A stretch of 41,597 bases of DNA from a virus (Duplodnaviria; Heunggongvirae; Uroviricota; Caudoviricetes). This document shows, one piece after another, positions 2,110 through 41,104 of the stretch. The position numbers were made by a program, and so were the translations under genes. The notes beneath the pieces are model-generated. The model searched no databases, had not been told where the DNA came from, and saw nothing but the letters and a program-made list of their open reading frames with translations. Where the stretch lies: the IMG/VR virus record IMGVR_UViG_2537561603_000003, positions 1 to 41,597 of that record, one strand, 5' to 3'. Numbering within the stretch: position 1 is the first letter of the stretch; each line of letters opens with the position of its first letter.

Positions 2110-2757
2110 TCAAAGAGGAGGTTCTGGTAGTTGCATCCAGTCGGTTACATTGCGACTCTGTGTTTCGAAAAATTCATCACCATTGCGGACAATATCGAAA
2201 AACTCTCCGTCTCGATATTGCGCATAAAGAACGAATGCGCCATCACATAAAATAATTACGTGCTGACCATCATCTGGCATTAGCTCACTACAGCTTATCC
2301 AACCATCCGGAGTTACCGGAGAGTTGCCGGGTTCTTTAATGTGCAAACGAGGCTCACCATCTTTTGGTTCAGGCCACTGACGCTCCATGTTGATCTTCAA
2401 TTTATTTTCCATAGCAGCGGTAATTTCAGCATCACTGATACCGGCACGGCGCTGTGCATCCCACAACAGGAACTGCATATCAGCCCACTCGCTGAGATCG
2501 TCAGGTTCGGCTGCGGCTTCCAGAGCCTCTTTTGAGAGGTGTTTCAGTGGACCAATGGGGCCAACGCAGCCAAATGTGGAGTCAGACCATTTGGCATGCT
2601 CGTGGCGAACCCGCTCGCGTTCCAGTGAGGCGAGAGCGATTTTAAATGCTGTAAGCATGTGTGCTTGATCGTTGTCGAGTCCGAATGGCATTTCATCTCG
2701 TGCTGACTCAATACTGGTAATCGTATTTTGTAGCCATTCCATGGTAAAAGTGCTCAT
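2110..2757 (-). CDS. Prophage accessory protein, DUF550/dATP-dGTP pyrophosphohydrolase-like N-domain plus DUF551-like C-domain
   Basis: 215-aa ORF; ATG at 2755-2757 overlaps the upstream stop (ATGA). The C-terminal segment DGWISCSELMPDDGQHVIILCDGAFVLYAQYRDGEFFD resembles the DUF551 motif common in enterobacterial prophages. Domain names are from memory. Confidence 0.55.
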   Translation of the reverse strand: MSTFTMEWLQNTITSIESARDEMPFGLDNDQAHMLTAFKIALASLERERVRHEHAKWSDSTFGCVGPIGPLKHLSKEALEAAAEPDDLSEWADMQFLLWDAQRRAGISDAEITAAMENKLKINMERQWPEPKDGEPRLHIKEPGNSPVTPDGWISCSELMPDDGQHVIILCDGAFVLYAQYRDGEFFDIVRNGDEFFETQSRNVTDWMQLPEPPL

Positions 2758-3125
2758 CGTAAAATATCCTCTATACTGGTAAGCCCTTCATTATTTAGCC
2801 AGATCATTGCGTCATCCGGCAACTTGCTGTCTGGTTTTGCGTTTTTGAGAGAGGAACTCAGTCGCTTAATCCACATTGTCAGCTCAGTAATGCGCCTGTG
2901 TTTGCCTTCCAGCTCAACGCGCAGCCTCCCTACCGTTAGTGCAATATCCTCGTTCTCCTTGTCGCGGCGTTTGACGTATTGCTGGTTTCTTTCCCGTTCA
3001 TCCAGCAGTGCCAGCACAATCGATGGTGTTACCAGCTCATGGAAAAGGTCCGCGTCAAATCCCCAGTTGTCATGCATTGCCTGCTCTGCCGCTTCACGCA
3101 GTGCCTGAGAGTTAATTTCGCTCAC
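2754..3125 (-). CDS. Hypothetical early-left protein, 123 aa
   Basis: ORF with GTG start at 3123-3125 overlapping the upstream TGA stop (GTGA); helical and charged; occupies the lambda ea22/ea8.5 position. Confidence 0.45.
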   Translation of the reverse strand: MSEINSQALREAAEQAMHDNWGFDADLFHELVTPSIVLALLDERERNQQYVKRRDKENEDIALTVGRLRVELEGKHRRITELTMWIKRLSSSLKNAKPDSKLPDDAMIWLNNEGLTSIEDILR

Positions 3126-3343
3126 TTCGAACCTCTCTGTTTACTGATAAGCTCCAGAACTTCCTGGCAACTTGCACAAGTCCGACAACCCTGAACGACC
3201 AGGCGTCTTCGCTCATCTATCGGATCGCCACACTCACAACAATGAGTGGCAGATACAGTCTGGTAGTTCAGACGACGCATTTTTATTGCTGTATTGCGCT
3301 GTAATTCTTCGATTTCTGATGCTGAATCAATGATGTCTGCCAT
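3122..3343 (-). CDS. TraR/DksA-family C4 zinc-finger protein
   Basis: 73-aa product with CxxC-(17)-CxxC spacing (HCCECGDPIDERRRLVVQGCRTCASCQ), typical of phage TraR/DksA-like proteins; ATG at 3341-3343. Confidence 0.7.
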   Translation of the reverse strand: MADIIDSASEIEELQRNTAIKMRRLNYQTVSATHCCECGDPIDERRRLVVQGCRTCASCQEVLELISKQRGSK

Positions 3344-3441
3344 CTTCCATTAATCCCTGAATTGTTGGTTAATACGCTTGAGGGTGAATACGAATAATAA
3401 AAAAGGAGCCTGTAGCTCCCTGATGATTTTGCTTTTCATGT

Positions 3442-3753
3442 TCACCGTTCCTTAAAGACGCCGTTTAACATGCCGATTGCCAGACTTAAGTGAGTCGGTG
3501 TGAATCCCATCAGCGTTACCGTTTCGCGGTGCTTCTTCAGTACGCTACGGCAAATGTCATCGACGTTTTTATCCGGAAACTGCTGTCTGGCTTTTTTGAT
3601 TTCAGAATTAGCCTGACGGGCAATACTGCGAAGGGCGTTTTCTTGCTGAGGTGTCATTGAACAAGTCCCATGTCGGCAAGCATAAGCACACAGAATATGA
3701 AGCCCGCTGCCAGAAAAATGCATTCCGTGGTTGTCATACCTGGTCTCTCTCAT
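3442..3753 (-). CDS. Hypothetical protein in lambda orf60a position, C-terminally extended
   Basis: ATG at 3751-3753 overlaps the orf63 3' end by 20 nt, the same overlap as lambda orf60a/orf63; product is 103 aa rather than about 60. Confidence 0.5.
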   Translation of the reverse strand: MRETRYDNHGMHFSGSGLHILCAYACRHGTCSMTPQQENALRSIARQANSEIKKARQQFPDKNVDDICRSVLKKHRETVTLMGFTPTHLSLAIGMLNGVFKER

Positions 3754-3925
3754 CTGCTTCTGCTTTCGCCACCATCATTTCCAGCTTTTGTGAAAGGGAT
3801 GTGGCTAACGTATGAAATTCTTCGTCTGTTTCTGCTGGTATTGGCACAAACCTGACTCCAATTTGAGCAAGGCTATGTGCCATCTCAATGCTCATTCTTA
3901 ACTCAACAGGAGATGCTTTGTGCAT
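3734..3925 (-). CDS. Lambda orf63-like protein
   Basis: 63-aa ORF, 192 nt, with a 28-nt overlap onto the next gene, matching the lambda orf63 layout as recalled. Confidence 0.65.
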   Translation of the reverse strand: MHKASPVELRMSIEMAHSLAQIGVRFVPIPAETDEEFHTLATSLSQKLEMMVAKAEADERDQV

Positions 3926-4080
3926 ACAGCCCCTCGTTTATTATTTATCTCCTCAGCCAGCCGCTGGGCTTTCAGTGGATTTTGGATAACAGAAAGGCCG
4001 GGAAATACCCAGCCTCGCTTTGTAACGGAGTAGACGAAAGTGATCGCACCTACCCGGATATTATCGTGAGGATGCTTCAT
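3898..4080 (-). CDS. Lambda orf61-like protein
   Basis: Product [24 protein letters not shown]...; ATG at 4078-4080 overlaps the exo stop (ATGA at 4077-4080); the track ORF extends two codons further upstream. Confidence 0.65.
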
Positions 4081-4757
4081 CGCCATTGCTCCCCAAATAC
4101 AAAACCAATTTCAGCCAGTGCCTCGTCCATTTTTTCGATGAACTCCGGCACCATCTCGTCAAAACTCGCCATGTACTTTTCATCCCGCTCAACCACGACA
4201 TAATGCAGGCCTTCACGCTTCATACGCGGGTCATAGTTGGCAAAGTACCAGGCATCTTTTCGCGTCACCCACATGCTGTACTGCACCTGGGCCATGTAAG
4301 CCGACTTTATGGCCTCGAAACCACCGAGCCGGAACTTCATGAAATCCCGGGAGGTAAACGGGCATTTCAGCTCAAGGCCATTGCCGTCACTGCATAAACC
4401 ATCGGGAGAGCAGGCGGTGCGCATACTTTCGTCGCGATAGATGATCGGGGATTCAGTAACATTCACGCCGGAAGTGAACTCAAAGAGGGCTCTGGCGTCG
4501 TTCTCGTACTGTTTTCCCCAGGCCAGCGCCTTAGCGTTAACTTCCGGAGCCACACCGGTGCAAACCTCGGCAAGCAGGGTGTGGAAGTAGGACATTTTCA
4601 TGTCAGGCCATTTCTTTCCGGAGCGGGGTTTTGCTATCACATTGTGAACTTCTGAAGCGGTGATGACGCCGAGCCGTAATTTGTGCCACGCATGATCCCC
4701 CTGTTCGACAGCTCTCACGTCGATCCCGGTACGCTGCAGGATAATGTCCGGTGTCAT
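4077..4757 (-). CDS. exo: Lambda exonuclease (Red alpha)
   Basis: 226-aa product [65 protein letters not shown] matches lambda Exo; ATGA overlap with the bet stop. Confidence 0.95.
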
Positions 4758-5539
4758 GCAGCCACCTTCTGTTCAGAGGCTTTCTGTTTCAGGAATCCAA
4801 GAGCTTTAACTGCTTCGGCCTGTGTCAGTTCCGACGATGCGCGAATGTCGCGGCGAAATATCTGGGAACAGAGCGGCAATAAGTCGTCATCCCATGTTTT
4901 GTCCAGGGCAATCAGCAGAGTGTTAATCTCCTGCATGGTTTCATCGTTAACCGGAGTGATGTCGCGTTCCGGCTGACGTTCTGCAGTGTATGCGGTATTT
5001 TCGACAATGCGCTCGGCTTCATCCTTGTCATAGATACCCGCAAATCCGAAGGCCAGACGGGCACACTGAATCATGGCTTTATGCCGTAACATCCGTTTGG
5101 GATGCGACTGCCACGGCCCCGTAATTTCTCTGCCTTCGCGGGTTTTGAATGGTTCGCGGCGGCATTCATCCATCCACTCGGTAACGCAGATCGGATGATT
5201 ACGGTCCTTGCGGTAAATCCGGCATGTACAGGATTCATTGTCCTGCTCAAAGTCCATGCCATCAAACTGCTGGTTTTCATTGATGATGCGGGACCAGCCA
5301 TCAACGCCCACCACCGGAACGATGCCATTCTGCTTATCAGGAAAGGCGTAAATTTCTTTCGTCCACGGATTAAGGCCGTACTGGTTGGCAACGATCAACA
5401 ATGCGATGAACTGCGCATCGCTGGCATCACCTTTAAATGCCGTCTGGCGAAGAGTGGTGATCAGTTCCTGTGGGTCGACAGAATCCATACCGACACGTTC
5501 AGCCAGCTTCCCTGCCAGCGTTGCGAGTGCTGTACTCAT
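4754..5539 (-). CDS. bet: Single-strand annealing protein Bet (Red beta)
   Basis: 261-aa product [66 protein letters not shown] matches lambda Bet. Confidence 0.95.
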
Positions 5540-6822: not shown

Positions 6823-7704
6823 TTATGACCACTTTTTGTTTGGGTTTCGTTGGTGAGCGTGGTTTACAGGATTATTTGATATACCCCATAACTCTGACTC
6901 GCTTATCTCTACACGAGAGAAAGACCTGCTTTCTTTCAGTTCTTTTATAAACCTAGAACCTAAGATGACATCTATTGTACCAGAAAGTTCTTGTAAAAGA
7001 TCTTTGTTTTTTCTGAGGAAGAAAATATCTTCTTTATATTTAATTTTTACATAGAATTTATTCTGTATTTTTAATATATCAAAGCATGGCAGATATCTAT
7101 ATCCCTCATATTTTCGCCACTGCTTAACAATTATAACATCTCTTTCATTTACTGCATTAATCAGCCCAAGACCAAGTACAGGTATGAATATTCTATTGTC
7201 TGCCGAAAGCGTACAATTATCACCACCAGGCAAATATGTATAAATCATGTCGGAATTTTTATACGCATCAACGAATGCACGTAAGAAGCGTACATATTTT
7301 TGCCATCCGTTTATACCGAATTTACCATATAAGTATTCTTTATTTGTTAGAAGAAAACTATTTGTATCAGGATCCTTATCTACAGATCTGTCGATAAGAT
7401 CTCCAACTACGTTTACAAAGTCAAAGACAGAGTTTAATAAGAACAATTGTCTTTCAGTAGGGCGAATTTCAATTATGTAGCCTGGATGAAGACGATATTG
7501 CATCTGCTTACGAAGTATACCGAACGCTTGGGTCCGAGCATCTGAAAGCAACTTCTTGTCGCCATCGCCGTGAGCATTGTTTCTAATAAAACTGATATAA
7601 TTTACTAATTTTTCAGCCTCTTTTTTGTGTTTTTTTCGCTCTGATGCTGAGTCTATTGGTTTTGGTATGGACTTGTAATCAATCTTCTTCATTACGTACC
7701 TCAT
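6823..7704 (-). CDS. Hypothetical 293-aa protein in the pL operon, at the sieB/ral position
   Basis: ATG at 7702-7704 overlaps the N stop codon (ATGA); no TM segment and no motif recognised; AT-rich by eye. Confidence 0.6.
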   Translation of the reverse strand: MRYVMKKIDYKSIPKPIDSASERKKHKKEAEKLVNYISFIRNNAHGDGDKKLLSDARTQAFGILRKQMQYRLHPGYIIEIRPTERQLFLLNSVFDFVNVVGDLIDRSVDKDPDTNSFLLTNKEYLYGKFGINGWQKYVRFLRAFVDAYKNSDMIYTYLPGGDNCTLSADNRIFIPVLGLGLINAVNERDVIIVKQWRKYEGYRYLPCFDILKIQNKFYVKIKYKEDIFFLRKNKDLLQELSGTIDVILGSRFIKELKESRSFSRVEISESELWGISNNPVNHAHQRNPNKKWS

Positions 7705-8375: not shown

Positions 8376-9728
<1,353 letters not shown>

Positions 9729-16780: not shown

Positions 16781-17244
16781 GCAGAGTAACCGCGATTATC
16801 TCCGCTCTGGTTATCTGCATCATCGTCTGCCTGTCATGGGCTGTTAATCATTACCGTGATAACGCCATGACCTACAAAGAGCAGCGCGATAAAAAAGTCA
16901 GTGAGCTGAAGCAGGCGACTGCCACCATTACTGACATGCAGCAGCGCCAGCGTACTGCTGATGCACTCGATGCTAAATACACGAAGGAGTTAGCTGATGC
17001 GAAAGCTGAAAATGATGCTCTTCGGCGCAAGCTTGATAATGGTGGTAGGGTGCTCGTCAAAGGAAAATGCCCTGTGCCATCCTCAGCCGAAACCTCCAGC
17101 GCCTCCGGCATGGGCAATGATGCCTCCGTCGAACTCTCTCCAGTTGCTGGACGAAACGTTCTCGGTATCCGGGACGGAATCATCAGCGACCAAACAGCAC
17201 TGAGAACGCTTCAGGAATATATCAGGACACAATGCCTTCGATGA
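16777..17244 (+). CDS. Rz: i-spanin Rz
   Basis: 155-aa product [30 protein letters not shown]... with an N-terminal TM segment and a coiled-coil body; lambda Rz-like. Confidence 0.85.
16997..17203 (+). CDS. Rz1: o-spanin Rz1 (lipoprotein), embedded in Rz in the +1 frame
   Basis: Product [21 protein letters not shown]... has a lipobox (VVGC) and a Pro-rich segment ([11 protein letters not shown]), like lambda Rz1. Confidence 0.7.
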
Positions 17245-17419
17245 TAGCGATAATTTTTACTCATCATCCTTCACATTTGGCTCTGTAGACAGGATGGTGA
17301 TCACTTTTGGAGTGAATCCAGATTAAACATCTCATTGCTGATGCTTGATATTGAGCATCTTGCGCACGGTAAGGGGCTGCGTTGAAATAAGAGCCAGTCA
17401 TTACAAATACCAGGATTTT

Positions 17420-18112: not shown

Positions 18113-18178
18113 TTGACATTACAGAAACTCTTCACTGAGGTGCTTGGACAATGGCGCACCTAACGATGCGCCTAAAAC

Positions 18179-18439
18179 TCAACCCCTGTTGAAATTCTCT
18201 TTTGCTTCATTAATGAGATCTGAAGCGATCCGAAAGCTATTAGGGTTGGAATTGCTAATCAAACCTTTAACTGTTTCTTCTAATTCAATCAGCGCCTGAT
18301 TGCTGTGCGCAGACCTTGCAACGTTAGTCAATAAGGCAACCAAAATTGCCTCATGGGCAATGGCATGTTCTTTATCAGTTGTTTCTATGCGAAGCGGGCT
18401 GTTGGATGATCGTAGGCTTGTTTGGTTGAACGAAGACAT
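18179..18439 (-). CDS. Hypothetical 86-aa protein
   Basis: ATG at 18437-18439 with a strong AGGAGG RBS (complement of 18443-18448); predicted helical; no family recognised. Confidence 0.5.
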   Translation of the reverse strand: MSSFNQTSLRSSNSPLRIETTDKEHAIAHEAILVALLTNVARSAHSNQALIELEETVKGLISNSNPNSFRIASDLINEAKENFNRG

Positions 18440-18492
18440 TCTTCCTCCTATATGTCATTGGTAATTTTAACCGCCTTTGAAGGTATAACACT

Positions 18493-18699
18493 ATGTCCGA
18501 CATCTACCAAATCACGCTAACCACCCAAACAGGCGAAACCTTCACTGGCAAGATGTCACGACGTCAGCATGAGCTGGTTAATGGCTTTGTGCCGCTGGCG
18601 ACCGAGACAGGCGAGTAGCTGTACTTTGCTCCTGGTGATGCGAAGCGCGTGCAGTTCACGCCAGTAGCGGCAGGACAGACAGAGCAAACGACGGAGTAA
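18493..18699 (+). pseudogene. Small ORF interrupted by an in-frame amber codon
   Basis: ATG at 18493, 41 sense codons (MSDIYQITLTTQTGETFTGKMSRRQHELVNGFVPLATETGE), TAG at 18616-18618, then 26 more in-frame sense codons to TAA at 18697-18699. Confidence 0.3.
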
Positions 18700-18796
18700 C
18701 CTATGGCTAACGATGGCGAGCCTAGGTAATGTCCGCCAATTATCTTTCCCGACTCTGGCAACTGGCATCCATGAGCCTTTTTACATATGCTGAGTA

Positions 18797-19702
18797 TTAA
18801 CTGATATATCCATGAGCTTTGAGATAATTTTCCGCAATAATTATACCTACTGGATTGATGACTAGTGAGTCAAGTTCTGTAAGGGTTGAAATACCAAAAG
18901 AGTCGAGAACTAATTTTGTAGCTGGGAATGCTTCATAAAATGATGCATCAGATGTAAGAGTGTCATAACCCGTTCTTTTTGATAATAACTCTAAGTAATT
19001 GATATTATATATTTTATCTGAGAAAAATACGCCTTTAATTTCTAATAGCTGCTGATTTAGGCGTTTGAGGGTGAAATGTTCTCCAAGAAATTTTATATAA
19101 TCTGTTTCATAAACAGCATACATTGACCTATGGATCATGTAATTTTCTTCCAAGGAAATGTTAGGTAGTGAAAAATGAGTACTTTTTTTCTCTGCAAGTT
19201 CTGTGATATTTATACTTCCTATCATCTTATTGATTGAACGTAAAAAATATACAAATGCCAAAAACTTAATATCATTAGTGGTCAGTCTGGATGTTGTATC
19301 TAACGCTTGATCGATCAAAATGCTTTGGTCTTCTTGATCGTTTTCAATTTTAGTAACTATTAACTCCTTAAGAAGTTCTGATTTTGCATCAAACCCCTTT
19401 CTTGCGACCTGAACGACTGCTTGATTGAGGGTGTACTGAATATCGGGATCAGCGAGTTTTGCTCTTAGTTTTTCATCAACATCTTTAGATAGTTTTTCTG
19501 CAATTTGGTGACCAAATTCTTGAGCCCGTGAGTCGACTAAAGCGAATGCATCTTCACGAAGCGAAGCCATTTCACTTTTGACCATTAACTGGCAAATAGC
19601 CATGACCTCAGTAGTGGTGTTGCCAAAGTAGGCATCACCTGTAACTTGTATAGCTGAGGAGTTATCACCCACACTTTGACCGGATTTCTCGAATAAGCTC
19701 AT
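18797..19702 (-). CDS. Hypothetical 301-aa protein of the antisense accessory island
   Basis: ATG at 19700-19702 overlaps the stop of the upstream membrane-protein gene (ATGA); AT-rich by eye; no motif recognised. Confidence 0.6.
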   Translation of the reverse strand: MSLFEKSGQSVGDNSSAIQVTGDAYFGNTTTEVMAICQLMVKSEMASLREDAFALVDSRAQEFGHQIAEKLSKDVDEKLRAKLADPDIQYTLNQAVVQVARKGFDAKSELLKELIVTKIENDQEDQSILIDQALDTTSRLTTNDIKFLAFVYFLRSINKMIGSINITELAEKKSTHFSLPNISLEENYMIHRSMYAVYETDYIKFLGEHFTLKRLNQQLLEIKGVFFSDKIYNINYLELLSKRTGYDTLTSDASFYEAFPATKLVLDSFGISTLTELDSLVINPVGIIIAENYLKAHGYIS

Positions 19703-19944
19703 TCTTTGTCCCTTTCATTAATAGTTATGTTGCCACCAATTTGTATACCGCTAGAGTTATCGCCGATTGTTTGGCTAACACCTTGCTCTTTAGCTTTGTT
19801 GCTTTTTAGATTTGCTAAGGCTGTTAGAAAAACGACCAAACTCGCTAATGCTGCTAGCGCTGTGGATAATGTTTGACTGGTTATGGCTTGATAGCCAAAG
19901 CCTAAAGCCGAACAAAAAGATACAAATACGATTAATTTTCTCAC
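19699..19944 (-). CDS. Small 2-TM membrane protein, about 81 aa
   Basis: Two hydrophobic helices (LIVFVSFCSALGFGY and LSTALAALASLVVFLTALANL); proposed GTG start at 19942-19944 has a GGAGA RBS. The track start (GTG at 20001) would overlap terS. Confidence 0.5.
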   Translation of the reverse strand: MRKLIVFVSFCSALGFGYQAITSQTLSTALAALASLVVFLTALANLKSNKAKEQGVSQTIGDNSSGIQIGGNITINERDKE

Positions 19945-19965
19945 GAAAATCTCCAGAGATAAAAC

Positions 19966-20517
19966 ATGGCACTTACTGACAAGCAAGAAATGTTCTGTCA
20001 CGAGTACCTCATCGATTTAAACGCCACGCAAGCGGCTATTCGGGCGGGGTACAGCGCAAAGACAGCTAACCGTACCGCATCCGAAAACTTGTCAAAACCT
20101 GACATCAAGTTAAGAATCGCCGAACTGAAAGCGCAACGCAATGATCTTGTTGGTATTAATGCAGAATATGTACTTAATCGCCTTCTTGAAATCGACCAGA
20201 TGGATGTGCTCGACATTCTCCTGCAAAACGGTGAGCTAAAACCCATTAAAGACTGGCCTAAGGTATGGCGCACAACGCTATCAGGAATGGATGTCGTGGA
20301 GATGGTATCCGCAGATAGCGCCGCACTTCTGAAGAAAATCAAATGGCCTGATAAGGTTAAAAACCTTGAGTTACTTGGGCGCCATGTTTCTGTTCAGGCG
20401 TTTAAAGACAACGTCAAAAATGAAGTGACTGGCGCTGATGGAGGACCAGTCAGAACAGAAATTACCAACTTAACGCCGGAGCAGGCTGCAGAGGCGTATA
20501 GAAAAATGATGGGCTAA
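19966..20517 (+). CDS. Terminase small subunit
   Basis: 183-aa product [57 protein letters not shown] has the N-terminal HTH region typical of small terminase subunits; directly precedes the large subunit. Confidence 0.8.
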
Positions 20518-40078: not shown

Positions 40079-41104
40079 TTAGGCTCGTGCTTCCTTTCTT
40101 AAAAATAAGGACCTCAATATCGAATTTTTCTCTATGAAATGCCAACACAACATAGCCATTGCAAGATTTAACAAAAAGACAAGTATCCAACTAGCAATAC
40201 CGTGAGTTCTTAAGAATGTATCTGGATTTCTGTCCAGATACATTAGCAATGGCAGCTGCATCAAATAAAATGAATAGCTGATGTCACCCAAATAAATAAG
40301 GCAAGATGTTAATATGTTTTTGGTTATTTCTAGGTTTCCCAAATAACATATAATTAATGCAAGTGTTGGTATTATTAAGTAGTTTGTATCCATGTTAACA
40401 TCGGATAGTGTGGTAGCATAAAAAAACATAGTCACAGAAATATAAAAAGTAATATTATTTATTCTTTTCCCATTTATGAAATACATGGCTGCACATATTC
40501 CGACAATAAATTCAGGAAGCCTAAAAATCGGAGTGGCGTAGTAAACGGAACCCACGGTTGGCCCACCAATAATCAGAGAAATTGGAACAAGCACAGCAGA
40601 AAAACCGTATGCAAAAAGTGTTATGAAAATCAAGTTGTCTTTATTTATTATCTTTAGTATATAAGGGAATAAAGAATAAAAAAACATCTCAACTGATACT
40701 GACCAGGTTCCACCAAAATTCCACAGGCTGAATGATTGGTATATCCATGCCTGCATACATACTAAATATAGGACTAAGCATGATATAATTTGCCCTGAGG
40801 TTAAATTGTCAGTAAAAAGAAATGGGAATGATATAATTCCGCAGCATAAATAAGCTGGGTAAATTCTTGCTATTCTTTTTTTAAAGTAATCAAGCAACTG
40901 AGAATCATAATAATTGTATGTAAGGACAAATCCAGAAAGCATAAAGAATATGCTCATTCCTATTGCCCCGTTTGAAATGGTTTTATTTAAATGAGAACCA
41001 AAGTCAACTGGGGCTCGCATATTGATATGAAAAATAAATACATAAAATGCAGCAAAGAACCGCAATATGGTGATGCCATCCATTTTGTTTTTTGATGAAT
41101 TCAT
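40079..41104 (-). CDS. Integral-membrane acyltransferase (acyltransferase-3 / O-antigen acetylase-like)
   Basis: 341-aa polytopic membrane protein; N-terminus ...GITILRFFAAFYVFIFHIN... is the signature start of acyltransferase-3 family enzymes (Oac/OafA type); very AT-rich; antisense to the tail genes. Confidence 0.75.
   Translation of the reverse strand: MNSSKNKMDGITILRFFAAFYVFIFHINMRAPVDFGSHLNKTISNGAIGMSIFFMLSGFVLTYNYYDSQLLDYFKKRIARIYPAYLCCGIISFPFLFTDNLTSGQIISCLVLYLVCMQAWIYQSFSLWNFGGTWSVSVEMFFYSLFPYILKIINKDNLIFITLFAYGFSAVLVPISLIIGGPTVGSVYYATPIFRLPEFIVGICAAMYFINGKRINNITFYISVTMFFYATTLSDVNMDTNYLIIPTLALIICYLGNLEITKNILTSCLIYLGDISYSFYLMQLPLLMYLDRNPDTFLRTHGIASWILVFLLNLAMAMLCWHFIEKNSILRSLFLRKEARA

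Follow-up and report, generated by a model that had tools for sequence, protein, structure and literature searches.

In the lambda prophage, the rexA and rexB genes form a two-gene layout whose products are believed to be a sensor and a membrane effector that causes abortive infection. Amyloid signalling from a receptor to a cell-death effector is established in animals, where it involves the RHIM, and in fungi, where it is known from HET-S/NWD2. Earlier motif surveys in bacteria had linked it to NLR/Bell pairs of filamentous bacteria, and the only bacterial system in which amyloid signalling has been demonstrated to date is Bab/Agp of Escherichia coli strain ECOR25, in which the BASS11 motif drives abortive infection (10.1101/2024.11.07.622273). 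Bacterial amyloid signalling sequences are defined by their occurrence at the C-terminus of an effector and at the N-terminus of a receptor encoded in adjacent genes (10.1101/2020.01.06.895854); they are rich in Q, N, G, V and I, poor in K, P and L, and typically comprise about 25 amino acids (aa). Here, we describe a pair of overlapping genes at positions 18,797 to 19,944 of IMG/VR virus record IMGVR_UViG_2537561603_000003. The record (41,597 nucleotides, referred to as the window) comprises an entire lambdoid prophage of E. coli. The pair encodes a small membrane protein of 81 aa and a soluble protein of 301 aa, and the same motif of about 20 residues is found near the C-terminal end of the former and at the extreme N-terminus of the latter.

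With Bab/Agp, the pair shares adjacent genes in a prophage or defence island, an E. coli host, a small membrane-targeting effector (about 100 aa in the case of Bab) with a C-terminal motif of about 20 residues and the presence of this motif at the extreme N-terminus of the receptor. The logic proposed for both, i.e., sensor assembly followed by motif templating and membrane damage, would also be the same. However, Bab is a Bell or 'Babybell' effector with a MEPIS-type N-terminus while the small protein described here is predicted to be a classical hairpin of two transmembrane (TM) helices, and function has been demonstrated for Bab/Agp whereas our pair is known from sequence alone. Podospora anserina HET-S/NWD2 likewise consists of adjacent genes, a receptor whose N-terminal motif equals the C-terminal prion-forming motif of the effector, and an effector acting on membranes. 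It differs in that it is eukaryotic, that the receptor is a STAND NTPase with WD repeats, that the effector has a HeLo pore-forming domain and that its motif is a two-rung pseudo-repeat instead of the single copy of about 20 residues present in our pair. RexAB resembles the pair as a prophage-encoded combination of a soluble protein of about 280-300 aa with a small membrane protein. RexB, however, has four TM helices instead of two and forms an ion channel, and the Rex genes reside in the immunity region. To our knowledge, no shared terminal motif is known for RexA and RexB. Membership in the RexAB group was rejected on the basis of the helix number and because no Rex model of PADLOC matched at E<=1.

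A shared and co-varying motif in two overlapping genes

The elements of the gene pair are as follows.

19699..19944, minus strand: gene 1, 81-aa membrane protein (WP_001228633.1), GTG start; from the open reading frame (ORF) and PGAP
18797..19702, minus strand: gene 2, 301-aa LPO_1073/Vpar_1526-family protein (WP_000051489.1); from the ORF and PGAP
19699..19702, minus strand: ATGA stop/start overlap of both genes; read from the sequence
19951..19954, minus strand: ribosome-binding site GGAG, 6 nt before the GTG of gene 1; read from the sequence
19807..19935, minus strand: two predicted TM helices, approximately residues 4-21 and 25-46; from hydropathy and the AlphaFold2 (AF2) model
19717..19776, minus strand: putative effector-side motif SQTIGDNSSGIQIGGNITIN, residues 57-76, with G-I-Q-I-G core; from translation and hhalign, disordered in AF2
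19622..19681, minus strand: putative receptor-side motif GQSVGDNSSAIQVTGDAYFG, residues 8-27; from translation, an N-terminal motif across the whole family
19253..19621, minus strand: conserved helical N-domain, residues 28-150, the part common to most family members
18800..19252, minus strand: variable C-domain, residues 151-301, AT-rich, pLDDT about 90; proposed sensing domain

In full agreement with a preliminary description of this DNA, sequence and PGAP annotation place both genes on the minus strand, antisense between the lysis genes and terS, with an ATGA overlap at 19699-19702. Judged by this layout, the overlap couples translation of the 301-aa protein to that of the 81-aa protein, and an identical 4-nt overlap occurs in most Enterobacterales loci. 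The mechanically derived ORF of gene 1 extends to 20001, but PGAP and the 81-aa homologues favour a start at 19944. E. coli strain Rb-23 carries identical DNA, in which NCBI/PGAP makes the same gene calls.

The 81-aa protein has 31 homologues, nearly all of the same length and 56-93% identical. Its AF2 model contains helices at residues 2-23 and 26-55 followed by a disordered tail (residues 56-81), and hydropathy analysis marks the same two segments, in line with the two TM helices noticed before. Positive charges are located at the N-terminus (MRK in MRKLIV...) and behind the second helix (KSNKAKE), and the positive-inside rule thus predicts that both ends of the hairpin, including the tail, are cytoplasmic. 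We therefore picture the protein as a predicted helical hairpin in the inner membrane. Scans against Pfam, PADLOC and NCBIfam returned nothing significant. The TM region scored below threshold with the CBASS 2TM effector model (E=0.035, the sole PADLOC match of the small protein) and with holin phrog_565 (E=0.083), the latter being the only resemblance to a known virion or lysis protein seen for either gene product. Both the small and the large gene are under purifying selection (omega, i.e., dN/dS, 0.13-0.52).

The preliminary description had also pointed out that the tail of the membrane protein is repeated at the N-terminus of the 301-aa protein. This observation not only held but proved to be a family-wide feature. 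In the window, QTIGDNSSGIQIGGN (small protein, residues 58-72) and QSVGDNSSAIQVTGD (large protein, residues 9-23) are identical at 9 of 15 positions (BLASTP E=6e-5 in a single comparison), and hhalign of the two protein families aligned exactly the 20 columns listed above as effector-side and receptor-side motif (probability 93.8%, E=1.7e-7). All Enterobacterales homologues examined, from Serratia, Klebsiella, Providencia, Enterobacter, Pantoea and IMG/VR contigs, have a gene for an 81-84-aa protein directly upstream. When distant relatives, 25-50% identical to each other, were gathered from IMG/VR and metagenomes, in about 64 of about 65 loci with available upstream DNA, a gene for a protein of 63-100 aa with one or two TM helices was found to abut or overlap the Vpar_1526 gene on its upstream side. 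Prophages of Enterobacterales are represented among these loci, as are metagenomes from soil, freshwater and the sea, and the sole exception (L052) apparently carries a degraded copy of the small gene. The coupled combination of a small protein in the membrane with a larger, soluble partner is thus conserved. In every such pair, the C-terminal tail of the small and the N-terminus of the large protein follow the pattern x-Q-x-V-x-x-[GN]-S-x-[G/A]-I-Q-A-G-[GR]-[DN]-[VI]-x-[IV]-x.

Motifs of 44 pairs were extracted in register, and co-variation was tested on the 35 pairs remaining after dereplication. Cognate motifs are more similar to each other than non-cognate ones, with BLOSUM scores of 42.7 versus 31.5 and 8.7 versus 6.9 identities over 20 positions. 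None of 20,000 permutations reached the observed cognate score (p<=5e-5). Both partners have the same residue, one that is rare in its column, in 23 cases compared with 11.5+-3.2 expected (p about 8e-4). A genome composition and a descent that partners have in common may partly inflate the outcome of both tests. As examples, both partners in locus L032 have Y-Q-A in place of I-Q-A, and both partners carry N-V-x-Q-V in L075, L076 and L081. The DNA segments encoding the two motifs in the window are identical at just 31 of 60 nt, and one conserved serine is encoded by AGC in one and by TCA in the other. The similarity is therefore maintained by selection at the protein level. Recent duplication or gene conversion is unlikely on the same grounds, which speaks against the origin by duplication suggested earlier.

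Amyloid-like composition and RHIM-like core of the motif

Relative to background, the motif is enriched in Q (2.98x), N (2.21x), G (2.11x), I (1.60x) and V (1.43x), contains no P and is depleted in L (0.19x) and K (0.74x). Composition and length are those of amyloid signalling sequences, a comparison that refers to composition and not to a computed beta or amyloid propensity. The same is true for the geometry, in that the motif lies C-terminally in the small protein and at the very N-terminus of its partner, and that both genes overlap by 4 nt.

At the centre of the small-protein motif resides G-I-Q-I-G, an instance of the signature G-φ-Q-φ-G that is common to RHIM, fungal PP and bacterial BASS3 motifs and forms the core of the RIPK1/RIPK3 amyloid. 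The window sequence NSSGIQIGGN matches RIPK1 (NSTGIQIGAY) at seven and RIPK3 (NCSGVQVGDN) at six of ten positions, and RIPK1 matches RIPK3 at four of ten (RIPK sequences checked against PDB chains 9hr6_A and 7dac_A). Length (about 20 residues), enrichment in Q, N, G, V and I, the central G-I-Q-I-G and the pairing of effector C-terminus with receptor N-terminus are all shared with RHIM, PP and BASS3, but the proteins of our pair are neither Bell or NLR proteins nor kinases. Within the family, G-φ-Q-φ-G occurs in 21 of 35 small-partner motifs and in none of the 35 receptor motifs, and I-Q-A-G is the form present in most members. With a motif of this length, homology to RHIM and convergence with it would look the same.

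Bacterial and fungal amyloid signalling receptors (BASS/FASS) are NLR/STAND NTPases with repeats or, in the case of Agp, a TGP, and the 301-aa protein is of neither type. The corresponding effectors are Bell/HeLo-like, TIR, CHAT or hydrolase proteins. The 81-aa hairpin, which has no Pfam match and was not compared with a Bell profile, does not appear to belong to these types, a very remote relation to Bell domains being conceivable. The residues quoted for BASS11 (I87-G88-S89-V90, Q92, D99-N100), compared by these positions only, do not register with SQTIGDNSSGIQIGGNITIN, and their spacing indicates that our motif probably belongs to another motif family. The pair may thus be understood as an effector/receptor module of the amyloid signalling type in which the sensor family is new and the effector is a TM hairpin.

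The Vpar_1526 family and its genomic surroundings

The 301-aa protein had initially been described as lacking any recognisable motif. This statement has to be revised, because residues 27-295 match positions 1-244 of the 257 positions of NCBIfam model NF045477 with 98.3 bits (cut-off 45), and PF28206 is precomputed for the protein and all of its 63 homologues. The PGAP name agrees. By sequence, the protein belongs to the named, uncharacterised LPO_1073/Vpar_1526 family. The NF045477 model begins after the N-terminal motif. A profile search of 1.84 billion cluster representatives retrieved 1,542 family clusters at E<=1e-3 and 559 at E<=1e-10; clusters were counted at 50% identity, and the former number is a lower bound. 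Most of the best 150 listed matches span only residues of about 5-160, indicating that the family consists of a conserved N-terminal half combined with variable C-terminal halves. A profile scan of genome contigs with alignment A1 yielded two loci only.

The AF2 model of the 301-aa protein is all-alpha (pLDDT 79.9, pTM 0.78), with residues 1-27 disordered (pLDDT <50). A structure search with this model found no meaningful neighbour among solved or viral structures, and searches of PDB sequences with both families and the motif returned no relatives. Pfam contributed no domain at E<=1, P-loop motifs are absent from the family alignment, and no obvious oligomerisation or enzymatic domain was found in the protein. 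The two halves differ in their history. When several homologues were compared with the window protein, identity amounted to 93% for the motif and about 80% for residues 28-150, but to no more than 30-37% for residues 151-301. Synonymous divergence (dS) is three to five times higher in the C-half (18800-19252) than in the N-half (19253-19702), with values of 0.216 versus 0.043 and 2.0 versus 0.70, and the breakpoint near residue 150 falls at a drop in GC content. This combination indicates exchange of the C-domain through recombination, which is behaviour expected of a specificity or sensing domain. Positive selection by point mutation was ruled out as an explanation for C-domain divergence, since omega is about 0.3 and the excess divergence is also synonymous.

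The GC drop brings us to the AT-rich block for which the entire island had originally been singled out. Sliding windows across 18750-19500 indeed have GC contents of 0.31-0.34, whereas the lysis/Rha region reaches about 0.46-0.51 and terS/terL 0.45-0.58. However, the block mostly covers the 3' two-thirds of the 301-aa gene and not the whole island, and the small gene has a GC content of 0.39-0.43.

In unrelated prophages of Klebsiella (Terminase_2/Terminase_6N) and Providencia (Terminase_4/TerL plus HNH), the pair also lies antisense between lysis cassette and terminase, and in Serratia it persists inside decayed prophage remnants. In locus L031 it is inserted between gpA and the portal gene gpQ of a P2-type phage, a hotspot that has been experimentally shown to carry anti-phage systems (PMC9122126). 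The pair adjoins a P2-type portal gene in L083, a fused PARIS AriAB gene (E=1e-138) in L075, a gene for a specificity subunit (HsdS) of a type I restriction-modification (R-M) system in L088, a serine recombinase in L052 and a Fic protein in L038. Some relatives reside in non-phage islands. In metagenome contig Ga0102591_1000101 (L063, 2236-4880), one small TM-plus-motif gene precedes a tandem of Vpar_1526 paralogues (2501-3355 and 3362-4219), both of which have an N-terminal motif of their own, and a gene for a 219-aa TM protein without family match (4221-4880) comes next.

Natural fusions were also encountered. In P0197 and P0218, the N-terminal 110 residues or so are an HNH nuclease of the CBASS endonuclease, SAVED-HNH and Shedu SduA effector models (E=1e-18 to 1e-28), followed by a degenerate motif region and the Vpar_1526 domain, such that the HNH domain takes the place of the membrane protein. 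In P0206 and in P0223, which contains two tandem motif copies, TM helices are fused in front of motif and domain. The HNH module is thus shared with CBASS and Shedu, and small 2-TM effectors are a recurrent output of defence systems. However, our pair lacks a cyclase, SAVED or DUF4263 partner, and the similarity of the small protein to the CBASS 2TM effector is confined to the sub-threshold match given above. PADLOC candidate PDC-S47 is matched weakly by 14 of 70 diverse family members (best E=1.3e-6), exclusively over its N-terminal 65 or so model positions, which correspond to the motif and the first helix; the window protein itself gave no match, and no literature on PDC-S47 was found. PDC-S47 is listed as a single-gene candidate, and membrane partner and shared motif fall outside that definition. 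Variability of the slot described below, the P2 hotspot, the PARIS and R-M neighbours and the HNH fusions are a context that points to defence.

Within the window, the pair is part of the following setting.

1-1074: integrase
8777-9409: CI-like repressor
about 15.9-17.2 kb: lysis genes, followed by rha
18113..19946: variable cargo slot between rha and terS, containing the pair, an 86-aa antisense ORF and a pseudogene
18179-18439, minus strand: second antisense ORF of the same slot, 86 aa, hypothetical (WP_000093956.1)
18493-18699, plus strand: pseudogene with internal stop (PGAP)
19966-20517: terS, followed by terL

The genes of the pair are positioned on the minus strand between rha, which follows the lysis genes, and terS. 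The full content of the slot was found in 13 of 5,426 complete E. coli genomes. Homology to sister prophages restarts at 19947, and sister prophages with the same terS lack the pair and have an unrelated 78-aa antisense gene in the slot. In E. coli Ecol_224 (NZ_CP018948.1; L035, 2759-2995), this gene encodes a soluble protein (WP_047672399.1) and is located next to a near-identical terS, at the same distance from its start. Unrelated cargo at the same distance implies that the slot may hold a fixed leftward expression signal for any cargo. Only 21 nt separate the start of the small gene from the terS ATG, which leaves no intergenic room, so that any promoter must be inside terS. The pair is convergent with the late operon, and its orientation is such that late transcription upon prophage induction could silence it.

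As regards the other occupants of the slot, the 86-aa ORF has no Pfam or PHROG match, and its sole PADLOC match (MTase_II, E=9e-4) is weak and probably spurious. The first 41 codons of the pseudogene match phrog_6581 (E=1.8e-20), and parts of the segment are found in 27 further E. coli genomes with 85-92% identity. Three further observations concern the prophage as a whole. A frameshifted hypothetical gene (PGAP; 17232-17385, plus strand, corresponding to L001 2633-2786) directly follows the Rz-type lysis gene. A 293-aa ORF without Pfam or PADLOC match (6823-7704, minus strand), located in the early-left region with the RecT/YqaJ recombination genes on one side and the repressor on the other, is possibly another accessory or exclusion gene. 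At the right prophage end, antisense to the tail genes, an Acyl_transf_3 acyltransferase (E=3.8e-26; 40079-41104, minus strand) looks like an O-antigen-modifying lysogenic-conversion gene.

A candidate sensor-effector module and competing explanations

In principle, a conserved pair of this kind can be explained by several fundamentally different functions. On the strength of its sequence features and of its analogy with described systems, we lean towards a sensor plus membrane-effector anti-phage module that would protect the lysogen by abortive infection or exclusion. An arrangement of sensor and effector for abortive infection in the manner of RexAB had been proposed at the outset. In view of the P2 hotspot, the PARIS and R-M neighbours and the HNH fusions, such an arrangement continues to be the best reading; a relationship to RexA or RexB in terms of homology was not found.

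In such a module, the 301-aa cytoplasmic protein would be the sensor, in which a disordered N-terminal motif precedes a helical, conserved N-domain and a rapidly recombining C-domain, and it would be the latter that recognises a phage cue. The 81-aa hairpin would be the effector, and the motif, carried by its cytoplasmic tail as well, would act as the wire between both proteins. Gathering of sensor molecules by the phage cue would allow their N-terminal motifs to form a cross-beta nucleus (amyloid-like, of the RHIM-type G-φ-Q-φ-G), which would template or recruit the tails of the hairpin proteins. Clustered hairpins would then cause a membrane lesion, and the infected cell would be halted. Judging by the HNH fusions, the same sensor could also act on a nuclease through proximity. 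Both motifs are disordered in the monomer models, and this disorder, together with their composition, their geometry and their co-variation, supports coupling of the amyloid type. That the contact between sensor and effector is truly amyloid or prion-like is a tentative proposition that we regard, by analogy, as possible rather than probable.

Several findings weigh against this interpretation. Although the Pfam RHIM model (PF12721) is the only Pfam match of the tail, the score stays below threshold (E=0.088, 12.8 bits versus a cut-off of 20) and the match is limited to one of 32 motif sequences. On the receptor side, alanine or another residue replaces the first glycine (A-φ-Q-φ-G). We therefore regard the relationship with RHIM as resemblance as opposed to membership. 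A motif search against PDB sequences did not recover the RIP kinases; the best matches of motif profile A9 were nanobody N-termini (QVQLVESGGGSVQAGGS) with non-significant E values of about 3-9, a resemblance to two consecutive Ig beta-strands that is due to chance. The possible inflation of the co-variation tests has been mentioned above. The motif region is retained in the fused forms, where a model of pure templating in trans has no need for it. Neither protein of the window matches a PADLOC model, with no family at E<=1 for the 301-aa protein, and tblastn of the latter against 50,697 genomes of isolated phages gave no match. A promoter scan and a relaxed scan of the 300 nt upstream on the minus strand detected no sigma-70-like promoter reading leftward from terS, and no terminator was recognised for the pair. 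Literature searches for LPO_1073, PF28206 and both WP accessions yielded nothing, and Vpar_1526 appears in a proteome table only. Neither did we find a paper describing this gene pair; the defence catalogue used for comparison was PADLOC 2.0.0.

Among the competing explanations, a constitutive membrane-tethered complex survives best. Here, the motif would be an ordinary beta-strand zipper that docks the 301-aa protein on the hairpin without any cell death, as in superinfection exclusion that blocks DNA entry or in a membrane-proximal sensor. Proteins with TM helices fused directly before motif and domain (P0223, P0206) exist in nature, Vpar_1526 is among the uncharacterised proteins detected in membrane fractions of Veillonella parvula (PMC5491611), the sensor is devoid of an obvious oligomerisation or enzymatic domain, and a location in a prophage suits exclusion genes. 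However, a simple anchor leaves unexplained why the motif is rich in N, Q and G, free of P, nearly free of L and RHIM-like, and why both copies are disordered in the models. Furthermore, a defence nuclease replaces the membrane protein in the fused relatives, a replacement that speaks for an effector and against an anchor as the upstream partner. We therefore consider a mere tether unlikely.

Even less credence is given to an addiction, toxin-antitoxin-like or host-fitness function, in which a small holin-like toxin and a large inhibitor would serve prophage maintenance or a role in the envelope. A small hydrophobic protein that is translationally coupled to a larger partner does resemble membrane-toxin modules, the weak matches of the TM region to the CBASS 2TM effector and a holin PHROG, both below threshold, fit, and the pair persists in decayed prophages. 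On the other hand, a co-varying shared terminal motif is not normal in such modules, the neighbours are defence loci and the HNH fusions are architectures of the defence type. Note that toxin-antitoxin and defence roles are not mutually exclusive, such that this explanation partly collapses into that of a sensor-effector module. Finally, accessory genes for lysis or packaging (antiholin, spanin regulator or terminase helper) are so improbable that we dismiss them: The pair does lie next to lysis cassette and terS in several unrelated prophages, but in all prophages encountered it runs antisense to the late operon, sister prophages whose lysis and terS genes are the same lack it, it is as rare in E. 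coli as stated above (13 of 5,426 genomes), no homologue turned up in the isolated phages searched, and relatives exist in the P2 gpA-gpQ hotspot and outside phages, the lysis region upstream already contains a lambda-family holin, and the sub-threshold match to phrog_565, from a gene antisense to the lysis genes, does not make the small protein a holin or lysis accessory.

Returning to the sensor-effector module, a more far-reaching suggestion is that the pair represents a large unnoticed class of minimal two-gene immune modules, comprising at least 1,542 clusters in several phyla and common in prophage defence hotspots. We advance this with reservation, as conceivable and short of likely. 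The same degree of caution applies to the idea that, throughout the class, an NTPase-free sensor with a new fold addresses a two-helix membrane effector or a fused HNH nuclease via a single RHIM-like, prion-type rung of about 20 residues. If true, the mechanism so far demonstrated for Bab/Agp would extend to a far larger, phage-carried family across phyla. It would operate with the smallest parts yet described, an effector of 81 aa and a sensor of 301 aa without NTPase, and with a motif core that is nearly that of human RIPK1. Amyloid signalling of the RHIM type would then be a common phage defence that does not depend on NLRs, in ordinary unicellular bacteria as well as in their phages, and a function would be assigned to the uncharacterised Vpar_1526/PF28206 family and to PADLOC candidate PDC-S47.

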